From contig KZ538597.1 of NCBI GenBank assembly GCA_000934665.2, forward strand, positions 62,001 to 105,797: a stretch of DNA of 43,797 nucleotides, in the 5' to 3' direction. The notes beneath the pieces were generated by a model. That model saw only the letters and a list, made by a program, of their open reading frames with translations. It did not search any database and was not told where the DNA came from. The stretch comes from Catajapyx aquilonaris. Taxonomy: Eukaryota. The position numbers and the translations under genes are program-made. This document shows positions 17,804 to 39,184 of this stretch, one piece after another; positions within the stretch are counted from its first letter, which is position 1, and each line of letters opens with the position of its first letter.

Positions 17804-17912
17804 GGGTGGAATTTTAGTCTCACTGCTAGTTACTGCTAACTTAGCAGTACCAGTGTAGTGCATTGGTACGGCTGAGTTAGCAGTAACTAGCAGTGAGAGG
17901 AAAATTCCACCC
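17804..17912. mobile_element. Short hairpin MITE, family A copy 2
   Basis: GGGTGGAATTTTAGTCTCACTGCTAGTTACTGCTAACTTAGC ... reverse complement ending AAAATTCCACCC. Confidence 0.8.
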
Positions 17913-21507: not shown

Positions 21508-21714
21508 CTGTGCCATCTGCTGCATCTCCTGCGGGGTGACCATCCTCATCCTGGACTTCCTCCTCTTGTTTCCGTTCATCACCTTGGCCTCCTCCGGGCT
21601 GCAGCTGCTGTTTGGCATCCCCCCTTGCTGCCCACCCAGAAAAGGAGCGTCCGAGTCCATCTGGAGCGACATCACCACCCCGTCAGGCGAAGGCTTCAGA
21701 ACACGTCCCTGAAC
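21508..21714 (-). CDS. Eip74EF: E74A coding exon 2 (VQGRVLKPSP...QEMQQMAQ)
   Basis: Follows a 63-bp GT-AG intron (acceptor GTGTGTTTGCAG). 69 open codons, phase 0/0, donor CAG|GTTTGC; joins exons 1 and 3 in frame. Confidence 0.75.
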
Positions 21715-21777: not shown

Positions 21778-22110
21778 CTTGTCGTCAAAGTCACTGAAGA
21801 AAGCATCCAGCTCAAAAGGGTCGCCCAGCTGCCGGAAGAGATCATCCTCAATGGAGGCGACCAACCCCCCGAGGTCGCCCTGGGTGAGCTCCTGCAGCTC
21901 CGGCCCTGTCTGCGGCTGCTGGCTCATCCTGGCCTGCATGGCCTGCATGGTGGTGGGTGGGCCCAGCAGAGGCGGACCAGGGCACCCCCCCTGCTGGTGC
22001 TGCTGCTGGGGACCCCCTCCACCCGCACCGCCACCTTGCTCCAGACACATGTCCACCATTTTCCCATCCGAGTCAGGGCACCAAAGCAGGTCGTCGTCAA
22101 TGAAGGGCAT
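21778..22110 (-). CDS. Eip74EF: Ecdysone-induced protein 74EF isoform A (ETS transcription factor), coding exon 1
   Basis: Starts MPFIDDDLLWCPDSDGKMVD, matching the recalled Drosophila E74A N-terminus MPFIDDALLWCPDNDG. Also has DDLFRQL..FELDAFFSDF, resembling DELFRSF..FEIESLLSDL. 111 codons, donor AAG|GTTCGC, phase 0. The exon itself starts at 22275 (acceptor TTTTGTCCATTTCCAG). Confidence 0.93.
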
Positions 22111-22403
22111 ATTAGCCAGAGTCCTCGGAAGGCCACTCTCTCCCCCTCCTCCTCCTGCTCCTCCTCCCCCAACTCCCCCCACGCCTCCTCCCTCCCCCAC
22201 TCCTTGGCCCACCGACCCTCCCAAAATCAAATCCAATCTCGAGTCTAGGTCACCGCCAACACTCTCACCATGTACCTGGAAATGGACAAAAAAAAGGTCA
22301 TCACTCGTCAACTAAAGCGCACAAGAAGACATGAAAATACAGAACGATTGCAATATTACATTTCGGTTGAAAATAAAACACGCACCGTGTAAATGCCACC
22401 TAA

Positions 22404-22416
22404 GGGTCAAAGGTCA
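22404..22416 (+). promoter_or_regulatory. DR1 nuclear-receptor element GGGTCA-A-AGGTCA
   Basis: Consensus DR1 about 130 bp from the acceptor of the first E74A coding exon. Function is inferred. Confidence 0.5.
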
Positions 22417-22469
22417 AGTCAGTTTCCTGACAAGAGTCCCCTAAATATATTTGTAATAAAACTAGCTAT

Positions 22470-22940
22470 TATAACCAAACCTGGACAAACAAACAAACTT
22501 TGCCTGGTATAATTGAGACCAGCTGCAGCTACTCTTAATTTGGCTGCTTTTATTTTACGATACATTTTACTTTATTATTTTCATTCTTCTATTATAAAAG
22601 GCAAAGTCTGTTTGTTTGCTGGACACACCAGGGTCGGTTTCTGTACAATACAATAGTATAAAAACCAGGTTGCCATGTTTGTTTGTTTGTCCAGCTTTCT
22701 GGTCTTTTAAGGTAATAGAGATCCATAATAAAAGGCACGGTTTGTTTGTTCGTTTGTTTGTCCAGGTTCGGTTACCACGGCAACTTGGGTCTCTTTTATG
22801 GTAAAAATTGATTAATCATGAAAGGCAAAGTTTGTTCGTTTGTTTGCTTGTCCAGATTTGGTTGCCATTGCTCCCCGGTCTCTTTATGGAAACCGATGGA
22901 AACCCAAACCTGGTCCAACAAACAAACAAACTGTGCATTT
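22470..22940. repeat. Cluster of direct and inverted GGCAAAGTTTGTTTGTTTGTCCAGGTT-type units
   Basis: About six related (GTTT)n-containing units; the outer two are inverted relative to the inner ones. Confidence 0.7.
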
Positions 22941-23318
22941 TTTATGATAACAAAGATTAATTCGTAAAAAAGATAAATACAGTTAGACACACACTGTTCC
23001 ACAAAAGTAGGCCTCTCTATCTCCCCCCCACTTATTAATTACCTTTTGAATCTGCCTCTGGGGCAGGGCGTCACTTTTAGAGCTCAAGTGACGCCTCTGC
23101 TCGCCCAATACGGGCTCAGGTCCTGCCCCGGGGCCAAATCGGCCCCGGGGCGACCGAAAATATGCCAGATAAAATTTGGTCCAATTAAGCCAGACGCCAT
23201 CTTTGATGCAGTAAGGTATGGGGGGGGGCAGGGGGGATTCAAACATGGCTGCCAATTTACGTGCCAATTTTAATTTGCATGCAAATTTTTGCGATTAATT
23301 ATGCTAATAACTACTCAC

Positions 23319-23386
23319 CTGGAAGTGTCTCGGTGTCGCTTCAGCTTGAACCAATTCATGAAAAATCCTTTTATTTCCGGACGGAC
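23319..23386 (-). other. Eip74EF: Internal 68-nt leader exon of E74A
   Basis: Minus strand: branch-like CTAAT, then TTCGTTCTTTCCTTGTGTACTTTGCAG acceptor, and a perfect CAG|GTGAGT donor. The E74A acceptor at 22276 lies about 1 kb downstream. Confidence 0.72.
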
Positions 23387-23612
23387 CTGCAAAGTACACA
23401 AGGAAAGAACGAAATTAGCGGTACGTCACCACATCGACATGACCAAATTGTGTGTACAGAAATTAATTGACAAGAATTTATGCAAATAATTGTGCGAAAA
23501 GCGCAACAGGTGCAGTCTGCCTGCACCAACATGGCGTCCTTTTCCACCTACTCTCCTAGAGTAGCTTCTTTTTTTTTTAAGTGTGTAATCCGTGGCCGCA
23601 GGCAGATCAAAG

Positions 23613-23783
23613 ATGGCGGCCTCCAGTAGAGAGCTGGACTTGACTTCTCCGGATTTCGATCCGTATAAAGCCCTGTACTCTTCGTCTGTGTCTGTTCCGG
23701 TCCAGTCGGCTCAATCCCTGGACAATCTGGACGCCTACGACGCCATCAGGAGAGGCGTCAGGGCCCCACAGCCATCAGAAAAG
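23613..23783 (+). CDS. LSM11: U7 snRNA-associated Sm-like protein LSm11, exon 1
   Basis: MAASSRELDLTSPDFDPYKALYS...DNLDAYD resembles the LSm11 N-terminus (LDVSSDSFDPLLALYA...NNVAEYE, FLASH-binding region). Good Kozak AAGATGG; donor AAG|GTCTGG. Confidence 0.92.
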
Positions 23784-23885
23784 GTCTGGCACCGTTTCTC
23801 ATGTTAAAGCAATGTGTTTTGAGCTGTGACGTCACTTTCGCCACTTCTTTTTTTTTTTTTTCCTTTCAATATTTCCCGCGCTCAG

Positions 23886-23943
23886 GAAAAGAAAGCGGAA
23901 GAACGACCTCAGACACTTCAGAGGGCCTTTTTGCCCCATCAAA
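23886..23943 (+). CDS. LSM11: LSm11 exon 2 (EKKAEERPQTLQRAFLPHQ)
   Basis: Long poly-T tract then CTCAG acceptor; donor A|GTGAGT, phase 1. Keeps the frame into exon 3. Confidence 0.85.
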
Positions 23944-24104
23944 GTGAGTTAATTGCTATTACTTAATCGCGATTAGAAAGACAGTGAGCTGACGATCATT
24001 AAATTATTACTCCACACACACAGAGTGATTATGCATTTTCCCTAGATTGAATGACATTTGGACTTGCGAATAGTATTGAAATCAAGTACATGTACATAAA
24101 TGGT

Positions 24105-24880
24105 AAAATAATAAACACATAATTAATTAAATAAATAATGCATAACTAATAAATAATAAGTAATATCAATAAATAAAACACTCAGTAAATTGTAGTAATA
24201 GCATAATAAAATAATAATTAGTATAAATGATAAAATATATAATAAAATAATTAGTCCAAATGATAAAATATATAATAAAATAATAATTAGTACAAATGAT
24301 AGAATATACAATAAAATAATAAATAGTTAATTATATATAAAATATATAATAAAATAAATAGTTAATTAATATAAAATATATAATACATAGTAAATAAATA
24401 ATAAATGGTAAATAAATCATAACCCTGTCATAACTAGTAAATGGTAAATAAATAATAAATAGCAAATAAATAATAAATGGTAACTAAATCATAAATAGTC
24501 AATAAATATGCTAATATGTAATAAATAATAAATCAAATAATACATTGCGCATTTTATATTTTCTGTATTTCATTATTACGTAGTTTATAAGTTGTTGCTT
24601 ATTTTGTAATTATTTTAGTGGCATTTTATTTATTTATTTTATGTTTATTTTTTCCTATTATTTTACTGATTTTAAATTTTATTATTTTTACCATTTTTTA
24701 AATTTAGTTCATATTTTGGGTTAGCTTGTGGCTCCCGTCATCGCTGACTACCCCTTACAGGGAAATGTCGTGATGGTGGTGATGATGATGATTTTGCTTA
24801 TTTTATTATTTCATTAGTTTCTATTAGTTTGGTTTTATTTGTTTTTATTTGTTTGGTTTTATTTATTTATTTATTTCACG
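24105..24880. repeat. AT-rich low-complexity tract in LSM11 intron 2
   Basis: Degenerate AATAAAT/ATAT repeats that switch to T-rich. A similar tract lies at about 15830-16130. Confidence 0.8.
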
Positions 24881-25705
24881 CAACGAGATGTAAGCCAATA
24901 CATTTTCTGATTATGATCAAAAATTAAAACGTCACACTGCATTGCATTTTCATGACAACAATGAAGCGTGATATTTAATTCATATCATTATACCAAAGTT
25001 GAGCGTTTCCTATTCTATCGATTCAATTAATATAATTTTTTAATTGGGAATTTGTATGTGATTTCTTTTTTGCAAGTTTTGGCTCAAATTTTGGTTCGTT
25101 TTGTCAGACACTTTTAATGCGGATAGGTAATATCCTGCAGGTTGTGCCACCCTCCAATGCGCGTGGTCATATACCAGCAGGATATTTACTTTAGCATGTG
25201 TAGTACATGAATGTGGTGTATACAGTAGTGCATGTCCACATGTAGCTGTTACTAGGAATTTGAAATCGTGGGTTACGTAAGCTCAAATTAATGGGGGGGA
25301 TATTCGATTATTGCTCGGTTCCAAGAATAATTTTAAACAAAAAATTAGCAACGCGTTAACTATGCATTGCGTTGCTCCAATGCGCGGCTTTTCTCTAATC
25401 GATGGTACAAAATTCCGCCGTTTGAGGTAAACACTCACTTTTACGTGAGGAACCAGCACCTTTTCTCTCTTAAAATGATCGATCTAACCGGAGACTTAAA
25501 CGACGGTTAACCCAACACTTAACTTAATGTTTTGTGCTGGTATTTACGGCCGGTTTCGCCGAGTAGGATGTATATTATAAATCCGAGTTTTCTTTCTGAA
25601 AATCCTAACTGTTGATTGTTGTCAGCAATGGTAAACCGAGGTTCAAAATTTTAACCAGGTTGGTGAAACCCGACCTTAATCCGATGTTTTCTCTCATTTT
25701 CGTTG

Positions 25706-25832
25706 TACAGTGCTGGGCATTAATGTTGTCGTACTGGTGGCGCCACGATCTGTAGGCGGAAAAATGCATCGATTCGCTCTTTTGACATCAACGGCTGTTG
25801 GCGCCACCTGTGCGACACCATTCAGCAATGTA
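25706..25832. mobile_element. Hairpin repeat, family B copy 2
   Basis: GTCGTACTGGTGGCGCCAC ... TGGCGCCACCTGTGCGAC imperfect inverted repeat; related to 6991-7075. Confidence 0.55.
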
Positions 25833-25920
25833 CTATGGGCGCCAAAAGAATTGACCGGTGTTGATGGGTATATAACGCCATATACCCATCAAATCCGGTC
25901 AATTCTTTTGGCGCCCATAG
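25833..25920. mobile_element. 88-bp hairpin MITE with TA TSD
   Basis: CTATGGGCGCCAAAAGAATTGACCGG..TTGATGGGTATAT and its reverse complement, 6-nt loop, TA on both flanks. Confidence 0.88.
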
Positions 25921-25972
25921 TAGGCTACAGTACAACCGAACATGATTTTTTTTATTATTATTGCATGGTCAG

Positions 25973-26085
25973 TGCCAATACACGTGCCCAGACGTGTCCT
26001 TCCGAACCTCCTGAGTCGCATGAAGAACTTCCAAGGTCCACTGGCTGCTTTATTCACATACGTGGAGCAAGGACGAAGACTAAGG
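25973..26085 (+). CDS. LSM11: LSm11 exon 3 (PIHVPRRVLPNLLSRMKNFQGPLAALFTYVEQGRRLR)
   Basis: Resembles LSm11 RNVLTRM...SPLGELHRCIREGVKV. Acceptor ...GGTCAG, donor AGG|GTCAGT. Confidence 0.9.
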
Positions 26086-26142
26086 GTCAGTACACTACTG
26101 GGTTGCACCATTCGCCGGTTAATTTTAACCGTCGGTATATAG

Positions 26143-26284
26143 GTGTGGACAAGAGACATGTGCGGCGTCAGAGGCGTGATGACGGCGACGCTCGTGGCGT
26201 TCGACAAGCACTGGAACCTGGCCATGATCGACGTCGACGAGTATTACGTCCGACGAAGAACTGGCGTCAAAGTTCCTGCCACTG
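26143..26284 (+). CDS. LSM11: LSm11 exon 4, Sm1 motif
   Basis: VWTRDMCGVRGVMTATLVAFDKHWNLAMIDVDEYY corresponds to Sm1 ([26 protein letters not shown]). Preceded by a 57-bp intron; donor CTG|GTACGA, phase 1. Confidence 0.93.
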
Positions 26285-27281
26285 GTACGACACTTCCATC
26301 GCCTGCTTTTGCCATATATCAACCCACGCAGTACAGTTATGTCACCTCCAGTGTAGTTACCGGACCTTGGTTTGTTTGGGCACCTTTTGACAGGAGAGGC
26401 CGAAATATGAAGGCCTGCTGCTGCTGTGTGTGTGCAGGCGAAGGCCAACCCTATTGGGTGGGTGGGTGGGGTGGAATAAAGGCCAACGTACTTGCCGCAT
26501 TGACCTCTGCCTGCCAGTGGGTCACGGTCACCACGCCCAGTTTCCCTTCCGAATTCTAACGCAATGTGCCCCACTCATTTGGCAACCCCGCCTTCTTTGG
26601 ACCGCGCTGCGCACTCGAAGGACAAGGCATTGATGACCACGCGTTATTTTTATAGTTATTTGTGAATGGGGACGTCCTGCGGGCATTGAGGATTCTGATA
26701 TTTGCAATACCTGCGGTTACTAAGTACAGATGAATGTTCGGGAGAAAAACATGTTAACCGCCATCAGTGGAGGCGAGCCTTTCAAATGTAGACAGTCGTA
26801 GAAATGAGTAAGGTAGCAGACCTGTCCAAGAGAGGCTATCCTCCCTCTTCACGACTAGTATGCAGAACCATAAAAATCGTCCTTATTTTTAAGTGAATTT
26901 TGGTCCTTTTTGTTTGCAGAAATGAGTATTAGTTGTCGAGCTGTGATCGATCAAAGATCACATTAATTATACGGTATCGTACTGCCCTCTGACGTCACTG
27001 CGGCTTAATCACTAGTGGTTCAGAGGCAGGAACGCACCCGAGCTACTTTGTTTTGTTTGCTTTTGTGCTCCTACCAATGGCATCGAACAACTTCCAGTAA
27101 ATGAGCGAATCAAACCGTCAGTCTGCTGACGTCATCTGCAATAGGCAGGCGTCGGAATGCGCTTTCTAGGCCACGCCCCCTTTTTCCCCCGCCAATTTGA
27201 AGGTAACTTTTAAACCCGGCGGCAATTTATTGATGAATGGCATTTTGGTGCTAAAAAGTGGTGGAATGCGTTTAGTTGAGC

Positions 27282-27566
27282 TATAGTAGGGGTAAGCTAA
27301 CTTATGGGTTTTGGGAGGTGGCTTGTATCCTTGGCAGCCATAATTAGCCCCGCCCCCTGCTGAGTTCTTTTTTTGTATGGAATTTAGAACGATTGGTGGG
27401 GAAATATGTAAACAAACTCATCTCATTCTTGAGGTTTTAGAACATAACGCCCATCTCATTTGAAATCGAATCCTGATTGGTCGACCGGTAAGGGGCGGGG
27501 CTAATTATGGTCGCCAAGGACACAAGCCACCTCCCAAAACCCATAAGTTAGCTTAACTCCACTATA
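27282..27566. mobile_element. MITE with about 75-bp TIRs in LSM11 intron 4
   Basis: TAAGCTAACTTATGGGTTTTGGGAGGTGGCTTGT..ATAATTAGCCCCGCCCC and its reverse complement; TA at the ends. Confidence 0.85.
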
Positions 27567-27768
27567 ATTGTGCAATTTACTAGTTTCCCAAATCCCAGAC
27601 CAAGGCTATAGGACCCCATTTGATCCTCTGTGGTACCTTACTCATTTCAGCAACTACATGTCAAGTACAGAGGCCAATTGCAGCCATCATTTTTGCTATT
27701 CTCGTCCTTTGTAACCTAGATTTGTGGATGACCCGTGACCCAGACCCCGTTTCTTTTTTTTTGTCCAG

Positions 27769-28064
27769 GCGATGAATTGGCCTCGTCCATGAGCCGGCTG
27801 AGATTGGACTCACACCTGCCCGACTCAGGGGTCAAACCTGACCAACCCTGGGCCCTTCTGCTGGCCGCCCCTGACCTGTCCCGCAGGCAGTCGTCCGAAA
27901 GTGGACAACACATGGGACCGTCCACTTCCACAGGTCGAATGACCCACCACACCACTGGGACGCCACTGGCCAGGACCCGGAAGTGGACGCTGGTCTCCAG
28001 GCACATGACCCAGGTCATGCTCAGGGGAGAGCAGGTGGCCATTGTCGCCCCCACCACCTCATGA
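27769..28064 (+). CDS. LSM11: LSm11 exon 5, long spacer plus Sm2 motif
   Basis: Acceptor TTTTTTTTTGTCCAG, phase-1 join. RHMTQVMLRGEQVAIV corresponds to Sm2 (RHINQIFIRGENVLLV). TGA at 28062-28064. Total CDS 780 nt, 259 aa. Confidence 0.92.
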
Positions 28065-28211
28065 CGCTGCCTACTGTTTGACTTTATTGTTTAGTTTGGC
28101 TGACAGCAACGTCCAGTTGCAGATACTGGACACCAGTTGTATTACACATCATGATCTACCAGTGCATGTCACAGGCACCCACAGAATCAGCGTGGCACCT
28201 TGTATGTGAAT

Positions 28212-28217
28212 AATAAA
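28212..28217 (+). terminator. Probable LSM11 polyadenylation signal AATAAA
   Basis: AATAAA about 150 nt after the stop, followed by T-rich sequence. A second AATAAA sits at 28322. Confidence 0.55.
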
Positions 28218-29671
28218 TTATTATACTTTTTCGTACCCACCTATTGGAAGTGGATTGCTCCTGGCACCAGCTGTGGAAGAGAGGGAAGCTTTATTAACTC
28301 CACGTTGTCGTGGCAGAGGTGAATAAACTCCCCTAACGCTCTGTTATCCAGCACATTTTAATGGTCTGTTAAGAGCCCTCAACATGCCTGCGAGTTAGGT
28401 ACCAAACACTAAGTGCTCTTACAATAGTATGGACCGCAAGAAATTACACTGCATGGCAATAATATTCATAGTGATAAAATATCAGACAAAAGTAACTATT
28501 GCTGTGAAAATACAAAAGTAATTGTCAGTGGTTATATCTGGGAAAATAACCACATTTTTAAGGGACTAGAGTTAACTACATGTTTCAGTAAACCAGTAGT
28601 AGTTCAAGAAATCCCAATGACACATTTCATAGTTTCCCAATGATGCGGTCATGATGCGGACCAACTTTACATGTCAACAAGGACTGTGCGCTTGTTCATA
28701 CCAAGGTAATAGCAATTTATTCAATCATACTTCAGCAGGCCTTGTGAAAATCACAATGAGTCGTAAGGTTACAATAACGAAAATTCTATTCTTCATATGA
28801 TTAGAGCGATTTTTTTTTCCTGTTTAAATTCTGTAATTTAATCAAAAGTGCCAACAATGGACTTCTGTTTCCACTTCATCCCATCAACTGTGGCGTAACA
28901 CTTGACACCACTTTTGGCAGGGTGAAACACTGGACAACAATGTAAAATTTTCCGGACAATAATCTGTCCCAAACCACCTGCGATTATATCCAATCAAAAT
29001 AGCCGGCTATTCATGCGGATGCAGATAGTGCAATTGAATGGTGGATCCAATTACAGTGTGTGCCCCGCTTTTTTCCCCCACCTCTATCTGTCTGGATGAA
29101 GCGAACAACAATTGCCCGCAACAATGCCAATTATGATCAGTATTGATTATAAACAGAGAGAGAGAGAGGAAGAAGGGAATGAATTTTTGTCCGAACCCAA
29201 CCCAAAAAAGCACAGGCCCATCTGGTGACCCACATAAAGGTCACCTACACCGGAAGTTGTGTATTTTTTCTCTCTCTCTCTGTTGTTACCTCCCCTCCCC
29301 CTCCTACCCTCCGCCTCCCCCTTTTTTGTGTCACTCAAAATGGGAAAGATAATCATTATTGTTCTCCAGCTCAATGGTGACAATAAGACTTATTGTCACC
29401 AGACACAAAATAAAGGTGATCTCTCGGTCATGCTTCAAATAGCAGACCTTTTTTTTATATTTTTATTATTCGAGCCGTATATTTCGGGACTATTAGCAAG
29501 GCCATATTTTTATCGATGATCCTAATACTATCTTTGAATACATAATTCAGTAGGCCTATAACACGTACGTGTTATATGTATAATTATAATTATGAATTGC
29601 GCCAATTGATTGCACCAGTTTTCTGCGATTTACCTGCACCTTAGTTACATTTATCCTCACCCTGACCTGTG

Positions 29672-30405
29672 TATAGTTGTTAACTATAGTTGAAGGCCTG
29701 CTTACTTGAAAGGTGATGTTGGCACCCCTGCTATAAAAGTGGCACGTTTATGACATGTCCGTCGTGGCAGGGGTGCCAATCTTATCCATTCAAGGGTAGG
29801 TCTTCAACTATAGTTTTTAAAATATATATCTACGAATATACCCATTGTTATTGCTATGGGTGTAGTTGCTAACTATAGTTGAAGTCCTGTTAGCTTGAAA
29901 GGTGATGTTGGCACCCCTGCTAAAAGTGGCACGTTCGTGGCAGGGGTGCCATTCTTATCCATTCAAGGGGAGGTCTTCAACTATAGTTTTTTTTAATGAT
30001 CTACGAATATACCCCCCTTTTATTGTTATGGGTGTAGTTGCTACTGTAGTTGAAGTCCTGTTAGCTTGAAAGGTAATGCTGGCATCCGTGCTGAAAGTGC
30101 CAGGTTTATGTCATGTGTACATTGTAGCAGGGGTGCCATTCTTATCCATTCAAGGTGGGGTCTTCAACTATAGTTTTTTTTTTAAATGATCTGCGAATAT
30201 ACCCCCATTTATTGTTATGGGTGTCGTTGCTACTGTAGTTGAAGTCCTGTTAGCTTGAAAGGTGATGTTGGCATCCCTGCTGAATAAGTGCCAGGTTTAT
30301 GTCATGTGTACATCGTAGCATGGGTGCCAATCTTATCCATTCAAGGGGGGTCTTCAACTATAGTAAAAGATGATATGTGAATACGGCCACTTTTATTGTT
30401 ATGGC
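29672..30405. repeat. Tandem array of four 170-190-bp units, each an internal hairpin
   Basis: Hairpins CTRTAGTTGAAG...CTTCAACTATAG at 29684-29813, 29873-29986, 30044-30173 and 30233-30363, separated by a conserved linker of about 58 bp. Confidence 0.92.
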
Positions 30406-30758
30406 AAGCTGTGTTGGCTACTATGTCATGGGTCATTCCAGGGTGTCCACAGTTGCCAGACGAATAATATTGTGTTTTTTTTCTAAAACATGGGCTTATG
30501 TATAAAACAGTCAGGTTTTTCCCCCCTCCCCCATACCTTTCTGACTGGGTAATGTGTTATGATAATAATAAAAGTGAGTGGGAAAATTTCTCCTAACTTT
30601 CTCCTGACATACTTCATCACCCCCACCCCCCTCTACCCCTCTCCTGTCCTTTTATTTTGTGTTTTTTTAATACTTCAGCGGGGGCCAACTTTCTCCAAGG
30701 GTCGCATTTTTCGGGTAATTGGTCCCGAAAACTCGCCCAATTTTCCACCTTGGCGCAC

Positions 30759-30761
<3 letters not shown>

Positions 30762-30794
<33 letters not shown>
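30762..30794. repeat. (CT)n microsatellite
   Basis: About 16 dinucleotide units. Confidence 0.95.
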
Positions 30795-30798
<4 letters not shown>

Positions 30799-31317
30799 GA
30801 TGGCGGCCATTTTGGATCGAGCCAAACCATGATTGTGACGGTCAACAGTGGGGACACACATACACTGGCATTGTTGTGTCCGCCATATCGCAAGGTGGAC
30901 GAGCACAAGTAGGCCTAGGTTGCATGCACCTTGGGTTCCGAAAATTCAATGCAAGAGAGATGCAGAGAAGGAAAAAATAAAATAAAAAAAGTTTTATTAT
31001 TTTGGAGGCTGGACCGCTAGAGGAGTGAGGGTCACGTGTGAAAGGGCCACGTGACCCTCATGCGCCCAAGGTGATATGCTCTGCTCAAGGTGACCTTACT
31101 CACCGCGCCACCCACTTTGGTGGTCACTCAGGTGACCTCCATGGTTGCCCAATTTCTATACCCTTGCCTCTTTTTTTTCCGATGCTGCTCATCGGCGGCC
31201 ATGAGCAAGACGAGGGGAGTTGAGGTGAGTCGCGTTTCAAAGGTATAACCAGTTATTATTAACCGTTCAAAAGTAACCGGTTGAAAATCGCCGTCAAGAA
31301 TAAATAAACAGTTTATT

Positions 31318-31707
31318 CAAACGTTACTAGTAGCAGCTGCGTCTTGAAATGTTACTAGGTATGTTACAGAGCCGTTTTGAAACGTTACTACTGCAGAGTT
31401 ACGTTAAAAAATCGTTGTTGGTTATAGCTACTCGCTATAGCTGCTACTAGTTAAAAGTCAAGTTATTCGGGCTGAAAATAGCTAGTAGAGTTACAGAACC
31501 TTTAGGCAACTCTCAATGAAACGTTACTCTAGTTGCAGCTGCATTGTGAAAAGTTACTAGTTACAGCTACTTTTTGAAACGTTACTGTAGAGTTACGTTT
31601 AAAAAATCGTTGTTGGTTATAGCTACTCACTATAGCCGTAGTTAAAAGCCAAGTTATTCGGGCTGAAAATAGCTAGTAAAGTTAGAGAACCTTTAGTTAA
31701 TTCTCAA
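31318..31707. repeat. Two tandem units of about 200 bp, rich in AAACGTTACT
   Basis: AGAGTTACGTT..AAAAAATCGTTGTTGGTTATAGCTACTC...AAGTTATTCGGGCTGAAAATAGCTAGTA is duplicated; abuts the gap. Confidence 0.8.
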
Positions 31708-31733
31708 TCCGTGTTGGGAGGGGGGGGGGTATG

Positions 31734-31900
31734 NNNNNNNNNNNNNNNNNNNNNNNNNNNNNNNNNNNNNNNNNNNNNNNNNNNNNNNNNNNNNNNNNNN
31801 NNNNNNNNNNNNNNNNNNNNNNNNNNNNNNNNNNNNNNNNNNNNNNNNNNNNNNNNNNNNNNNNNNNNNNNNNNNNNNNNNNNNNNNNNNNNNNNNNNNN
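31734..31900. other. Assembly gap (167 N) flanked by poly-G
   Basis: Run of N. Confidence 1.
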
Positions 31901-31920
31901 GGGGGGGGGGGGTGTCGCAG

Positions 31921-31976
31921 GTTACTTGACTATCATAAAAGGGGGATCGCGATCCGAAAATTATTGGGAACCACTG
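31921..31976 (-). mobile_element. hAT-like element terminus
   Basis: Minus strand begins CAGTGGTTCCCAA, typical of hAT/Charlie TIRs. The partner end is not seen and may be in the gap. Confidence 0.45.
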
Positions 31977-32890
31977 TCCTAATGGATCGTTAGGAGCCAC
32001 GTGTGCTAACGATCTGTTAGGTGCTATCGAATCGGTAATTTCGTTGGTGCAATCGGGCAAAACATTTTTGGAAGGTAATTAAGAAAAACGAATTTTTGTG
32101 GTAAAGTAAACAGGTGGGGGTGTCACCTCGCAAAATGTACCGTAACAAAAGTAACTTCCCTTAGAGATACTGTTTATTTGTAACTATAGCTATACTGGTA
32201 CTTATGCTGGTTTGCATAAAATATTGCTAATCAGTAATCACTATGAATTTATCCTGCATGAACAACACGGGATCATTGACCAATTGTTTACCAATTTTAT
32301 AGTACAACCGGCTATTACGAAATTAATTATTGTCAAGTTCCTCTTAGATTGACGAGTTACATTTGCAAAGTTACACTACTTGTACATGTGTAATTTTGAC
32401 AGTATGGCCGACTTACCAAGGGTTTCGGGCGATGGCGTCTCTCTATCGCGGCGCCTTCTGCGGCATGCGGCCGGCTGTAATCAACAATAGAAGAATTAAC
32501 TACATGAAGGGAGATATCCATGCAAATTAGTTCTCACTGTCAGCATAACTTTTGGATACACTAGACTCAAGAGGTGACCACATGTTTGCCCTTTGCTACG
32601 GCGACCTATCCATTGCCCCATTGGCTGAATCACACATATATGATCGAATATCAGAAATCATGAACAGTATATTGTCGCATATTCTGTTGGTAAAGTCCTA
32701 ATGTCATCATAAGCGAAAAGATATGAACACAGACAAACAGGTTGTCGACAATATGTATTTTTTGACGGGGGGATTGGGCCAGTGTGACTATGTGTGACAT
32801 AGGGTGGGGGGATTTCTCCAACCAATCAGAAACCGCATAAATTTTCCGGATATATTGGCATCTTGCTTCCCTGTGATAACCATTCATTAC

Positions 32891-33055
32891 CTTCTGCTCA
32901 TGACTGAGTGTTCATGTGGGATCGTTCACATGTGACATCACCAACACGTTATATTCCTTTGTGAAAAATTGGCAGTCCTGCTGTCGAAGAGCGCGAACTG
33001 TCAGGCACACTTCCGGTACAGTCGAGTTATTATTATGGCTCCGTTCACACACTGA
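32891..33055 (-). other. Candidate first (non-coding) exon/promoter of E74A
   Basis: Minus-strand Inr-like TCAGTG at 33055-33050, next to TGACGTCA and ETS-core motifs in a CpG-rich patch. Donor AAG|GTAATG at 32890. The link to E74 is inferred. Confidence 0.4.
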
Positions 33056-36000
33056 CGTCACGCCACTTCCGAGTCTCTCTTTCGCACGCACTTTTGCCTG
33101 CTGCTCCAACTCGCGGGCCCAGCTCCCTTCGCACTACACACACATCAAAACACACACATACGCTCAGTACACGCACGAAGGCCAAGTCGGACCAACTGCC
33201 GGAGATTCACCTTGCCCCCATTTGCCCACATGTGATGAGAGGGGACAGGGAGGGATAGGATATAGGAGGGGAGTGGGGGTGGCCAGGATAGGAGCGGCAC
33301 ATGATGAGTTGTGCTTTACATGCGAAATAAGTGTGTGAGAATAAAAGTTGATGAGAAATGTGGAGGGGGGGTGACCTCTAGTGTGATGGAAAAATAGTGA
33401 CGTCATCTGGTCGCACTTCCTGACACAAGGTTGTGACGTCACGAACTACAATGACAATTATTTTCACATGTTACGCACGTTTGATTGACAACAATATTGT
33501 TGCTTTTTTCCATATAAGTATGGCCATATTTTTAAAGGTGCTGCTAAACTGGCTGGAAATTTTCAGCAATTTATGAACGTTAATAGGTGCAAATACTTTT
33601 AAGTGCCATTTAAAAAATATGCATCTCAATAAACCCGACGTCATTCTTGTAATCAAATTTTAAAATGGCATGAAAAGTTCTATACTTTAAAAATATAGAC
33701 TAATATGTACTTCCGAATAGAGTCCGCGCATTTAAAATGTAGCACGTGCCATATATGCCCTTCCACTTCCAGTGAAATTATCAAAAATTTATGTATACTT
33801 TTGCACGTGCATAAATCGATGCGTTTGTGTATTTTCCTCAAATACTCCGCTATTCATCAGTAATGCAGATATTGAGCACCCGAAATTCGCGCGTGAAATT
33901 CCCACGGCCTACTGGGGAGGAAATTAAGTCATCGAACAGCGCCAAAATATTTCGCGATTTTTTTTTTCAAAGCGACGAAAAATTGGCAGCCTTGCAAAGT
34001 TACCTCCACACACAAAAAAAATGTCTCCGCCCGTTCGCACACACACAAAAAAAAACCATTTTCATTGTGCGCCCCCCCGTAAAAACAAAAATGGTGTAGG
34101 TTTTCGCTAATTAACCTCAAGTGAGTTCCGGTGCGCGTCTTCCGGTTTCGCCAAAGCTTCCGCCTTCCCATAATGCAACTCGACCTTGACTCGGAACAAA
34201 CAAAAAAAATAACCCTGTGTGCATCCACGCACATGTTGAATCACAGTTAGCCAAAATTTTCGCTAACATTGCCCAATGTTACATACTGTATTATGAAGTT
34301 GGAAAATATGCAAATTACAAAAGCTGGCTTGTTTTTAATTGGTTAATTTGTTGTCCTCGGGGGGTGTTATCTTGGGTTCCAATGTACCGTGCACCTATCT
34401 CTAGAGTTGCAGTTAAGACTCGCCTTGAACTTATCACTGCACTTATCAGACAATGTATAACAAACTGCAACCAATTCATAAGCTTGGCACTGTTCCGGAT
34501 TCATATTTTCATTATTTATATATGTATAGTTCAAAAGCCGACTCACCCTTCGCCCCCCATGTCATCTAATGTCACCAAACTGCAACCAATACTGTCACTT
34601 ATTCAGAGTGGCGTCATATCTCGCGCATTCCAGGAGTACCAACACAAATCATTCAATTGTTGCATTCTGGGTGCCATCGATTGTTGTTAACAGATATTAG
34701 TGATCAGGCCAACAGAATGATGTAGACAGTAAAGAAAACGTGACGTTTCCTGTCAGACACTGGACAAAAAAAAATTATTCCAGGGTTTTCCAGTTATTTG
34801 CACACCGCTTCCTGCCATATTTTTCTGCAAAACTTGCTAAAAATAGCAACAATGCCAATCTTACCCTACGCTGCGGTTATTAACTCTCGCTTTTCGCTGA
34901 TTTTTTTTTCTGCACAGTTGTTATCGGTGAAGGGGCCCGCAAAAAAATTGTGTAATCTCAAATGCAGATAGCAACTCAGGTGTTGCCAGATTTCAGCATG
35001 AGGCACTTTTTGAAACTTCAATTTTTGTGCAGTGTAATATTAGTTTCGAAGGGGTGTTCGGCTAGCTCTGAGGCAAAGGTTGAACGTTTGGATATTTCGT
35101 CCTCGGCTGGGGCAGAAGTGACCTTCGGCTCCCAGTCCGACCTTGGGACGCCGGCATTTTGTGTTTCGCACATTCACTTCCTCAAGGATTTCTCGTCCAA
35201 TCCGCTCGCGACCTTCCAGGCCTGCAAACCACTCTTCTGCTGCTGCTTTTGCTGACTGCCCCCCACCTACCCGACTTTCAACAACTCTCGGGTTACTTTA
35301 TTGAAACTCACTCGAGCACTATCCAAAACCCACAGAATATTATTCCGAAACAGGAAGACCACAATGGGCCAGACCAATATCAAAACATTTTCTCAACACT
35401 GATCAAATCTAATGGCGTCGCGACTCATATTTCTATCAAAAATTCTCCGAGAATCTAATGAGCAATTATTTTACAAACTATTACAGTTCCATCTTGCAGT
35501 TTTAATTGCAAGAAGGATGCTATTTACGATGCATTTTATCTGTATGAATTAATTTTTCGCCCAATATCCGATTGGTGGGTCTTTAAATTATTTATACAAC
35601 TACTGATATGTGATAACATAATGTAAATGCATGGTTTGAAAATCGGCAATAATATTCCGTATCTGTTGCGTAATGTGCGTGATAAGAGGCCGGTTACCTC
35701 GTGGGATAGAGCAGGATATGGACACTAAAAGTGAAAATCCTTTTGCACATACGAGTCACTACTAATTCGCGTAAGAGAATTAAAAAGAAAAAAAAAGGAT
35801 ACGATAGAAAACATGAATGGCCGAAAAGGTTATCGTTTGTGCACGGAACCCGGAAGGATCTTCCAGGCTACGTACTACGTCCTTTTTAATATATAGTTTT
35901 TTTTTCATTATTATATTATTTTTTTTGAATGAAAAGAAATGGTTAGTCCGAGGCCAATTTTGGACAATGCAAGAGCACATGTTCCAGGAAGAAAAACTTA

Positions 36001-36405: not shown

Positions 36406-38730
36406 CTGTACAGTAGGTAATTATTTTAAAATGTCGAGAAATAGTCAATTTATACAGGCTACATGCGCATTAAAATCTCAGTACAAATTGTGGATTGTTT
36501 GTGGTTTGCAATTATTGCAGCAACCTTGGTGCTGCTTATAAAGTAAATAATAATCGCAATACCGAAGTGATGCGTGATCAAAAAAACATGTTTATATTTT
36601 TAGAGCCTGTGCTCGCTGAAAATTTCGCGTCATTTGTGAGCCTTGCGAATAACGAGGCGGAAAATTGCGGGGTTGTGATCAGGGCTCAAATTTTTGTGTG
36701 ATGGATATGGTTATTCGCGCAGATAGACCGTCACTGAAAAGCCTTGAGTCTAACAAAAAAAAAAAAAAAATGTTACACACATATCAGGGTGACGTCACTT
36801 CAAAGGTGTGTGGGGAAGGTCACGTGATATTCGCCCCCACACAGGTGTGGAAAGGCTAAATTTATCCCGATCTCTGTGCGCTTATCGCTCGGATTAAAAC
36901 CTCAAGAGTGCACAGTGCAGGTGGGGAGGGTGGGGAGGGTGGGGGAATAACAAACATACACATAACAAAAAAAAAGTGCAAATCTCGAGGTCGACGCGAT
37001 CACGGGCAACAACCCCGGGGATATGGCAACCTTGACGTCAAAATGTGTGTTGCAAACGGCCGTTTTATTTCCATATGGGCGACAGAAAAAAAAAAGTGGG
37101 GAAGGGATTGTTGCATAATTTTTTTTCGGGGGGGTACGTGAGGGGAATTGCCAAAAAAAAAGAGGCATCAGGGACGTGTCCTTAACCCTAGTGACCCATC
37201 ATGGAGAAGCCTGAAAATTCAATTTGCTCAAAACCGACCACACTCAATAGTTCTTAGTCGCCTTCGCATCTCCAACTTATCTAATTACACATAACCACTG
37301 ATATTCTACATGTTGATAAGCACACTGATTCGCAATTTTTCTGCAACCAAAATATTTGTTGCAAAAATGTCCGGACACTCATTTGCAACAGGTGTTTGAG
37401 TTTTTATTGTTCATGGCTAAATATACACCTTGTTATTTTCAAAACGTAAAAGTGTGTCGTATTCGTAATTACGCGATTTTTACGTAATTATAATGCACAA
37501 TATTTTTACCAAATATGTGTCATCCTTACAAACTGATCTGACTGGAATTTGCAAAAATGTTTACCTGGAATTTTCCACTGCTTGCATTTAAGGCCGGTCG
37601 TATATATATACTAACTGCAAGGATTTGTTATAGGCCTTGAGTTTATATTGCGAAAGTTTCACATTTTTATAAGCGATGGAAAACCTGCAATAAACTCCTT
37701 TTTTTAACGACGATGGTACAACTTGTCCCCAACGGTTAACGATGGAATATGTTTAAATCGCTCAGTTGATTAACAAGTACACATCCAAATGCAACTTTTT
37801 AAAAAGAATTTAATTTTTTTTTTTTTGCAATGAATGCGAAAGCAGTGTCTGTAAGTGCAAGTCGAATTTCTACCCGTGACATAAAGGCCGGCGCAGTAAT
37901 CTGATCAGAAACGGTTACGTGTTTCGATCTTGACCTAACCATAGGATGAGGAAGCTGATCCACGAGGAGAGGGTAGGGGGTAGGATAGGGAGGGATAGAG
38001 TGTGTGAGAGGGCGTTGTCCTTAAAGGAGTGAAATCCTGGCGGTTATGTCAAGATTGGGTAGTTCTTTGGGAAGGATTAAGACTTCCACTTTCTCCTCCT
38101 TCCTCCTTCATTCCGGTTTATCCCCACCACCACCACGAGACTTATCCTATATACTCGTTTTATTCCCATTGCCCGCAACCCCCACAATTTGAAAATGTAT
38201 GTTTCTAGGAAATCCGATGAATACACACACACACTGGTTGACTCTTACTGGCGGATTTCACTACAAGTATGCGTGCACGTGCTGGCCCAGCCCATACATG
38301 CCACTTCCACAGACAGAGAGACAAATGGTGTTTATTCGCCAGCATAATCCGCCGGCTTATTAAGGTCAGGCTGGTGTAACTGCGATGGAGATTAATATTT
38401 TTGGTTGGAAAAGACTGCTACTGCATTACCACAAATAGGATTATCTCCCATTATTATAAGCCAAGAATGTTTAATTTTCCTGTACGAATTATTCCTTATC
38501 ATCTCGTATTTCTCCGCACAACGCAGTGTTATTTTGCTACACATTATTGTGCTGTATTATATTTAGAGATAATATTTTCATTAGGTATCATGCTAACGAT
38601 TGGTCATAAATGCAATTTTCCTATAGGACCTAGCTAATGTGATGGTAATGATTAATTTTTTGGTCCATAATATTCATTTGGGAACCAATTTAGGCAACCA
38701 TTTGAAGGATCTTACATTAGTTGTATTATA

Positions 38731-38925
38731 CACGGTGTTTCAACTTTTTTGTCCGAATAGTTATCGGAAATATTGCACTAAGCTGCTACTTTGTAAGCAG
38801 TGTATGTCGCAGGGAATATTCCCCATTCCTCCGACAAACCGGTTGCAAGTCAATGCTTACAAAGTAGCAGCTTATAGTGCAATATTTCCGATAACTATTC
38901 GGACAAAAAAAGTTGAAACACCCTG
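38731..38925. mobile_element. Tc1/mariner-like MITE with about 70-bp TIRs and TA TSD
   Basis: TA-CACGGTGTTTCAACTTTTTTGTCCGAATAGTTATCGGAAATATTGCACTA... and a near-perfect reverse complement ending CACCCTG-TA. Confidence 0.9.
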
Positions 38926-39184
38926 TATGAGGCATTGAAATATATTTTACATTGCGCTGATGTCAATTAAAGTCCCGCGACCAGTTCGTATATTACAGAT
39001 AGGGTCTATAATCGGCTCAAATGCCTCCGAAGAAATTAATTAACATATAAATTACATTACAGAGATTCCAGTGTATTTTAGAATTCATTGATGCCAATTA
39101 AAATCCCATGTCCAAGTTCGTATTGCATATAATCGACTCAAATTGCCTCTAAATAAATATAATTAACAGATACATTGCATTATT

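Follow-up and report, generated by a model that had tools for sequence, protein, structure and literature searches.

Where transcription of E74A begins relative to its neighbor LSM11 is the question raised by a 43,797-nucleotide stretch of the Catajapyx aquilonaris genome (contig KZ538597.1, positions 62,001 to 105,797), the full length of which is referred to below as the window. E74 belongs to the textbook primary-response genes of the ecdysone cascade, and replication-dependent histone mRNA cannot be processed without LSM11. The two genes lie head to head on opposite strands, and homology matches in related contigs show that this linkage is conserved across distant lineages. The E74A exon nearest to LSM11, a leader exon of 68 nt, begins with a 3' splice site, and the chances that E74A transcription overlaps LSM11 in antisense appear to be about even. 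The window is eukaryotic, arthropod-like DNA with four runs of N, three of them single and the fourth comprising 167 N at 31734-31900, where the original prediction had placed a gap at 31734; the long run is bordered by homopolymer C runs. The features on which the argument depends are as follows.

22275-21775 (minus): E74A-specific first coding exon, comprising a 5' untranslated region (UTR) part at 22275-22111, the ATG at 22110-22108 and coding sequence to 21775 (112 codons); protein start MPFIDDDLLWCPD..., acceptor ttccag|G, donor AAG|GTTCGC
22276..23318 (minus): intron of 1,043 nt that separates the leader exon from the coding exon, repeat-rich, with the palindromic octamer ATTTGCATGCAAAT at 23286-23273
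23386-23319 (minus): 68-nt E74A leader exon, with an upstream ATG (uATG) at exon nt 28, recognized by its splice pair and by homology
23387..23612: gap between the leader exon and the LSM11 ATG, with ATTTGCAT at 23487-23480 (minus) and ATGGCGTC at 23531 (plus)
23613..28064 (plus): LSM11 coding region in five exons (23613-23783, 23886-23943, 25973-26085, 26143-26284 and 27769-28064) that join stop-free in a frame and splice check; 780 nt of coding sequence, 259 codons, ATG at 23613, stop TGA at 28062-28064
About 28215 and 28325 (plus): AATAAA, resembling poly(A) signals, near the 3' end of LSM11

The minus-strand gene is, judged by its sequence, the 5' part of E74 (Eip74EF), isoform A. A phmmer search of 1.84 billion representative sequences with the E74A N-terminal exon retrieved 61 relatives at E ≤ 1e-3, 6 of them at E ≤ 1e-10. 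The best named relatives are annotated as E74-like factor or ecdysone-induced protein 74EF in Penaeus indicus, and others come from Timema, Pycnogonum, Strigamia (an ETS protein), Ixodes and Tachypleus. The A-specific N-terminus MPFIDD..LLWCPD is present in the window exon, and an alignment of 10 sequences has 18 invariant columns. The closest relative shares at most about 48% overall identity, which indicates that the source lineage is poorly sampled; a search for relatives with LSM11 exon 5 gave no match. When three full-length E74A proteins were used as tblastn queries, only the N-terminal coding exon matched within the window, which would put the ETS exons beyond position 1 and mean that E74 intron takes up at least 21 kb of the stretch.

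The identity of LSM11 is secure on the strength of its N-terminal motif and Sm motif 1. Compared with PDB, exon 4 (Sm motif 1) matched human LSm11 chains at E = 2.1e-7, with SmB next at E = 0.015 or weaker. Exon 1 alone matched residues 32-80 of human LSm11 at E = 0.05, and a four-species profile of exon 1 matched human LSm11 at E = 1.4e-7, with the runner-up at E = 0.28. Exon 1 carries the extended N-terminal motif LD..S..FDP..AL, which belongs to the FLASH-binding region in human LSm11. Exon 5 had no match in PDB at E ≤ 1 (phmmer), and a Pfam scan of the ORFs with exons 4 and 5 returned nothing at E ≤ 0.01; by eye only, the C-terminal ...RGEQVAIVA resembles Sm motif 2. Both gene names given in the original prediction are thus borne out.

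The leader exon and its 3' splice site

Splice sites were scored on both strands of the window (87.6 kb) with a generic heuristic matrix that was not trained on this genome. The leader exon is bordered by ...ttctttccttgtgtactttgcag|G on its acceptor side, with a polypyrimidine tract and CAG, and by CAG|GTGAGT on its donor side. The donor scores 12.2 bits, and only two donors in the 87.6 kb reach 12 bits. The acceptor scores 7.5 bits, and eight acceptors reach 7.4 bits, including those of the E74A coding exon (22275) and the last LSM11 exon (27769). As a combination, the leader exon is the sole acceptor-donor pair of such strength at a spacing of 40-300 nt in the whole window.

Relatives were collected from metagenome contigs, which were scanned with an alignment of E74A N-termini and gave 11 loci (L001 to L011). 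In four mutually similar loci (L002, L003, L008 and L009), the ATG exon is preceded at a distance of about 1.5 kb by an exon-like segment of 64 nt with an acceptor of 5.8 bits and a donor of 12.6 bits. The best local alignment of the 68-mer with the 5.7 kb of L002 falls at L002 4027-4073 and stops at the donor in both sequences, and its score of 17 compares with a mean of 10.8 and a maximum of 15 for shuffled sequences (none of 300 shuffles reached 17). Forty of 63 aligned bases are identical between the leader exons of the window and L002, and acceptor, uATG position and donor agree. Positional counterparts of 73-91 nt are present in L010, L005 and L011, with acceptors of 8.4, 7.7 and 3.6 bits, respectively; the leader-exon donors of these three loci score 4.2-4.6 bits. 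A 3' splice site precedes the leader exon in all of the homologous copies found, in agreement with the original prediction, which had described a full acceptor and an internal exon. On this comparative evidence the 68-nt leader exon is genuine and ancient, and we infer that its acceptor is spliced. The conserved 3' splice site at its start marks it as an internal exon, which implies that E74A transcripts begin further upstream.

The leader exon might instead be mostly a first exon, with the main start at or just upstream of 23386-23440 and the acceptor serving rare transcripts from a distal or alternative promoter or an unrelated noncoding transcript from upstream. In L005 and L010 a TATA-like sequence adjoins the leader exon, and alternative promoters are the rule for E74, as in the A and B units of Drosophila (PMC4176353). 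In the window, however, no initiator (Inr) or TATA pattern stands out by eye upstream of 23386, and the presence of a 3' splice site in every lineage examined (7.5, 8.4, 7.7, 5.8 and 3.6 bits) argues for its regular use, so that a predominantly first exon is improbable.

Linkage with LSM11 and the start of E74A

The LSM11 ATG (23613, plus) and the edge of the leader exon (23386, minus) are 226 bp apart on opposite strands, which agrees with the distance and the head-to-head layout given in the original prediction. The synteny check that it had proposed also turned out positively, since the head-to-head linkage recurs in 3 of the 11 related contigs. In these loci the LSM11 exon-1 peptide matched the opposite strand just upstream of E74A by tblastn (E = 1e-5 in L010, 1.4e-5 in L005 and 0.025 in L011), and a profile built from the four exon-1 peptides found only the same three loci, at E ≤ 1e-32. 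All three also contain a colinear LSM11 exon 2 ending in ...FLPHQ. Measured from the LSM11 ATG to the acceptor of the leader exon, the gap spans 226 bp in the window, 192 bp in L010, 199 bp in L011 and 417 bp in L005. In L002 and L003 the leader exon is preceded by 3-4 kb of sequence, in which the profile search found no LSM11 exon 1; the loci other than these two and the linked three are too short for LSM11 linkage to be judged. A full-text search for the two genes together returned six papers, none of which, judged by title or abstract, concerns their arrangement.

The gap must accommodate the promoter and 5' UTR of LSM11 as well as two signals of the E74A intron, its branch point and its polypyrimidine tract. 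Since the strong 3' splice site of the leader exon is conserved, an upstream exon is expected to exist, and its most likely position is beyond the LSM11 start, because only weak donors are present in the 190-420 bp gap of all four lineages. The best donors on the E74A strand score 4.4, 3.9 and 3.1 bits in the window, 3.0 bits in L010, 2.1 bits in L005 and 4.5 bits in L011. A location beyond the LSM11 start is also favored by the lack of room, since the approximately 190 nt of L010 and L011 could hold this exon, its intron and the promoter and 5' UTR of LSM11 only if the 5' ends of the two genes overlapped. In the preferred reading, an upstream E74A exon beyond the 5' end of LSM11 would be spliced into the leader exon at 23386, and transcription of the E74A pre-mRNA would traverse, in antisense, the promoter of LSM11 and no less than its first exons. 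An E74A start beyond the 3' end of LSM11, which would leave LSM11 fully nested in an E74A intron, is doubtful; a start inside LSM11, with partial overlap, is unlikely. The octamer ATTTGCAT occurs in the gap, and the intron that follows the leader exon has a palindromic double octamer, ATTTGCATGCAAAT, 33 nt from its start (minus strand).

A less probable account, though one with definite points in its favor, is that E74A and LSM11 form a divergent pair with a bidirectional promoter. E74A would then start in the 226-bp gap with a very short first exon, and a mini-intron would lead into 23386 from a weak donor such as AGA|GTAGGT at 23551 or GTG|GTGACG at 23429; LSM11 would be merely a neighbor. 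A short gap kept in four lineages is typical of shared promoters. The original prediction had noted that no strong minus-strand donor lies in the gap; this holds for the window, where the best is 4.4 bits, but the force of the point is reduced because LSM11 exon 1 apparently also uses a donor of 4.4 bits, and the leader exons of L005, L010 and L011 have donors of 4.2-4.6 bits. Set against the divergent pair is that no gap donor exceeds 4.5 bits in the four lineages and none exceeds 2.1 bits in the 417 nt of L005. In L010 and L011, the 5' ends of both genes would again have to overlap if approximately 190 nt were to accommodate a first exon, an intron of at least 50 nt and the promoter and 5' UTR of LSM11. 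Furthermore, no stretch is less conserved between L005 and L010 than the gap. An alignment of the four gaps showed no common promoter block.

Several observations weigh against an E74A start beyond LSM11. The gap is short in all four lineages while nearby introns in the window have reached 1-2 kb, so a shared bidirectional control region fits at least as well as nesting. Weak donors are apparently used in this genome, as in LSM11 exon 1, and a short first exon in the gap could therefore be spliced. L002 and L003 have the leader exon although no LSM11 exon 1 was found within 3-4 kb upstream, which indicates that the acceptor is independent of the presence of LSM11. The splice scores themselves come from a generic matrix. 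In addition, the strand skew of the known E74 intron (-0.030; p = 0.004) matches minus-strand transcription, whereas that of 28.4-33.4 kb is +0.035 and that of 33.4-43.8 kb is -0.022, neither of them significant.

Spliced-leader (SL) trans-splicing occurs in copepods and some other animals, and at 23386 it would dispense with an upstream exon in cis: the pre-mRNA would begin in the gap as an outron, and the leader would come from elsewhere. Such a mechanism would explain a strong, conserved acceptor with no good donor upstream as well as the short, fixed gap. The ATG of LSM11 is also preceded by polypyrimidine-AG sites, at 31-53 nt in the window and at 38 nt in L005, and the lineage is a poorly sampled one, with no relative above about 48% overall identity. 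On the other side, L002, L003, L008 and L009 also have this exon and acceptor, the arthropod groups in which trans-splicing is known are few, and an Rfam scan of the window, which gave no matches, revealed no SL RNA gene. The 5' end of L001, a cDNA-like contig with a single 801-codon ORF from MPFIDD through the ETS domain and a 162-nt leader, is unlike the calanoid CopepodSL and five SL-like sequences (PMC4664967, Table 1) when compared by eye. Trans-splicing at 23386 is very improbable.

A functional extension of the preferred reading would make E74A and LSM11 an ancient interlocked pair, in which E74A of several arthropod lineages starts beyond the LSM11 5' end and is spliced into the uORF-bearing leader exon next to the LSM11 promoter, hormone-driven antisense transcription alters the supply of the U7 small nuclear ribonucleoprotein and thereby histone mRNA 3'-end processing at molts, and selection keeps the linkage and the spacing. 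This is quite improbable as a whole, and the coupling of ecdysone to histone mRNA by transcriptional interference, as put forward in the original prediction, is speculation: it presupposes that LSM11 is nested, that the hormone acts on E74A in this species and that interference takes place. If true, a conserved interlock would provide a testable route from molting hormone to S-phase histone supply; if the two genes are merely divergent neighbors, the finding is an ordinary one.

Candidate upstream exons and other features

The host exon on the near side of LSM11 (23386-23319) is well supported; on the far side, candidate donors are at chance level. The original prediction had singled out the minus-strand donors at 31103 and 32890 as the ends of upstream exons. 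Both sites exist (GCG|GTGAGT, 9.0 bits, and AAG|GTAATG, 7.7 bits), but they are no better than chance: the 20.4 kb from 23387 to 43797 contains 11 minus-strand donors of at least 8 bits, 24 of at least 7 bits and 83 of at least 5 bits. With 24 donors at or above 7 bits, these two do not stand out, and no evidence specific to either site was found for an upstream exon. The Inr-like site predicted at about 33053 is present as TCAGTG and forms part of a TGACGTCAGTG site within a cluster of CRE and ETS motifs. The features that bear on an upstream exon, with a further predicted exon of E74A, are as follows.

33008..33441: promoter-like cluster with three TGACGTCA (33053, 33398 and 33434) and two CGGAAGTG (33008 and 33064, minus)
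25439..25631 (minus): weak candidate upstream E74A exon within LSM11 intron 2
21508..21714 (minus): predicted next E74A coding exon, in frame and stop-free, with acceptor tttgcag|G and donor CAG|GTTTGC, identified from sequence and frame only and lacking homology support
1005, 1124, 2094, 2364, 7469, 11851, 13969, 15488, 23827, 26990, 27127, 33053, 33398, 33434, 36790, 37033 and 41098: TGACGTCA sites

The cluster at 33008-33441 looks like a promoter, to which no gene can be assigned. Its CRE palindrome, TGACGTCA, occurs 17 times in the whole window compared with 0.45 expected, a 38-fold enrichment that none of 100 shuffles reached (17 copies), and the flanks differ between sites, which indicates that these are not one repeat family. 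CGGAAGTG occurs 8 times compared with 0.86 expected. The excess of both motifs may reflect either a tendency of the whole genome or a high density of regulatory sites around E74.

The candidate at 25439..25631 came from the 5' end of L001, of which nt 3-33 match window positions 25631-25601 on the E74A strand at 25 of 31 positions. The score was reached by 2 of 200 shuffles and fails correction for about seven comparisons. A TATA-like TTTATAATATA lies at about 25585, and among the minus-strand donors between 23387 and 29633 none scores higher than AAA|GTGAGT at 25438 (8.9 bits); no counterpart of the 25631-25601 block was found in the other loci. As an upstream E74A exon this segment is a lead only. 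In L001 the first uATG is preceded by 97 nt of leader, a length that fits an upstream exon of some size, and the L001 leader contains no antisense LSM11 coding sequence and has no significant similarity to the upstream regions of L005, L010 or L011. Two further candidates were rejected. A 21/21 match of L002 to window positions 37827-37807 is a low-complexity poly-A run, and a donor-like AAG|GTGGG conserved in L005 and L010 is the reverse of an LSM11 polypyrimidine tract and not an E74A donor. None of the intra-window repeats involves 23300-23620 or 33000-33450.

The 5' side of LSM11 has donor-like sites on its own strand upstream of the ATG, at 23421 (6.4 bits) and 23216 (8.6 bits) in the window, at about 1371 in L010 (12.1 bits) and at about 1511 in L005 (7.3 bits), in addition to the acceptor-like polypyrimidine-AG sites already mentioned. 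LSM11 may have a noncoding first exon over the E74A leader-exon region, which would interleave the two 5' ends. Within LSM11, intron 2 contains an AT-rich minisatellite (24106-24533). In L010 and L005 the same intron holds a block of about 90 nt (L010 370-460, L005 298-400) with 72-75% identity in 40-column windows, similar to that of nearby coding exons; it has stops in all frames in L010, no Rfam match and no counterpart in the window or L011. A small RNA within the intron, an enhancer and an upstream exon of E74A are all conceivable identities for this block. Intron 4 has a minus-strand promoter-like patch at 26990-27200, with two TGACGTCA sites, CCAAT boxes, a GC box and the donor CGG|GTGCGT at 27037, and a pair of 75-nt inverted repeats (27282-27356 and 27492-27566) that are 92% identical and look like a small transposon.

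Elsewhere in the window, 90 ORFs of at least 85 amino acids over its whole length and 113 ORFs of 48-84 amino acids from 28.3 to 43.8 kb had no credible Pfam domain, and Rfam and tRNA scans of the window gave no matches, which weakly suggests that no recognized gene besides E74A and LSM11 is present. Tandem 189-bp repeats (2.3-3 copies, 85-91% identical) and several long palindromes occur, with repeat spans at 29668-30364, 981-1155, 17804-17912 and 38728-38928. The observed/expected ratio of CpG is mosaic over 22000-34500, with values of 0.3-0.6 at 27.5-31 and 22-23 kb and about 1.0-1.4 at 24.5-27, 31-32.5 and 33.5-34 kb, which suggests germline DNA methylation of some stretches.

The upstream ORF and comparison with known systems

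Translational control of E74A via its leader has long been known. The leader exon holds the start of a conserved upstream ORF (uORF), a candidate conserved-peptide uORF (CPuORF). In the window, this uORF, MNWFKLKRHRDTSR..., crosses the leader-exon junction and stops in the next exon after 23 codons (23319-23386 plus 22275-22207, minus strand); its L002 counterpart, MFWIKFQKHRDIAR... (L002 4010-4073), has 25 codons, and both stop about 30 nt into the next exon. The uATG occupies nt 28 of the window exon and nt 24 of the L002 exon. The two peptides are similar (MNWFKLKRHRDTS versus MFWIKFQKHRDIA), with HRD kept through three synonymous changes and 6 of 13 residues identical, in a comparison for which few sequences are available. 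In other loci the uORF begins MNVF... (L010 1325-1397) or MNCF... (L011 1560-1650). An MNGF... start is in frame with MPFIDD/E74A in some database proteins (P0032).

Compared with the CPuORFs of the dipteran set of Hayden and Bosco 2008 (PMC2276209), the E74A uORF likewise has a start position and a partial peptide, M-x-W/C/V-F/I ... H-R-D, that are common to distant species. It differs in that few sequences are at hand, the peptide is predicted, the uORF is known from sequence alone, and some database proteins begin with a similar MNGF... in the E74A frame. The text of PMC2276209 contains no occurrence of E74, Eip74, ecdysone or CG32180. A conserved leader exon of 64-68 nt with a uORF fits leader-based translational control of E74A, and it should be useful, together with the E74A/LSM11 microsynteny across distant lineages, for the annotation of arthropod E74.

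The E74A transcription unit of Drosophila melanogaster Eip74EF was reportedly characterized by Burtis et al. in 1990, and LSm11 and Eip74EF are presumably on different chromosome arms in that species. The window gene shares with D. melanogaster E74A (Bernardo et al. 2014, PMC4176353) the A-specific N-terminus MPFIDD..LLWCPD, a long 5' leader with uATGs and a large intron after the A-specific exons (at least 21 kb here). Unlike in D. melanogaster, the leader here would comprise at least three exons, the middle one being the 68-nt exon with the conserved uORF, and LSM11 lies 226 bp from the leader exon.

Nested intronic genes of Drosophila and vertebrates are mostly antisense to their hosts. If the upstream exon lies beyond 28.3 kb, LSM11 would likewise be a small housekeeping gene, complete and antisense in a long intron of a regulatory gene. 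Unlike nested genes generally, its promoter would adjoin a 3' splice site of the host at a conserved distance, and the host exon on the far side is hypothetical. With head-to-head pairs (less than 1 kb between starts), E74A and LSM11 share opposite strands, a close spacing (226 bp from exon to ATG) and a linkage kept across distant lineages. Unlike in such pairs, the nearest E74A exon starts with a 3' splice site and not with a start site, and one partner is a hormone-induced regulator and not a coexpressed housekeeping gene. The arrangement is best described, from the sequences compared here, as a conserved divergent or nested pair combined with a conserved uORF, both of which are kinds already known.

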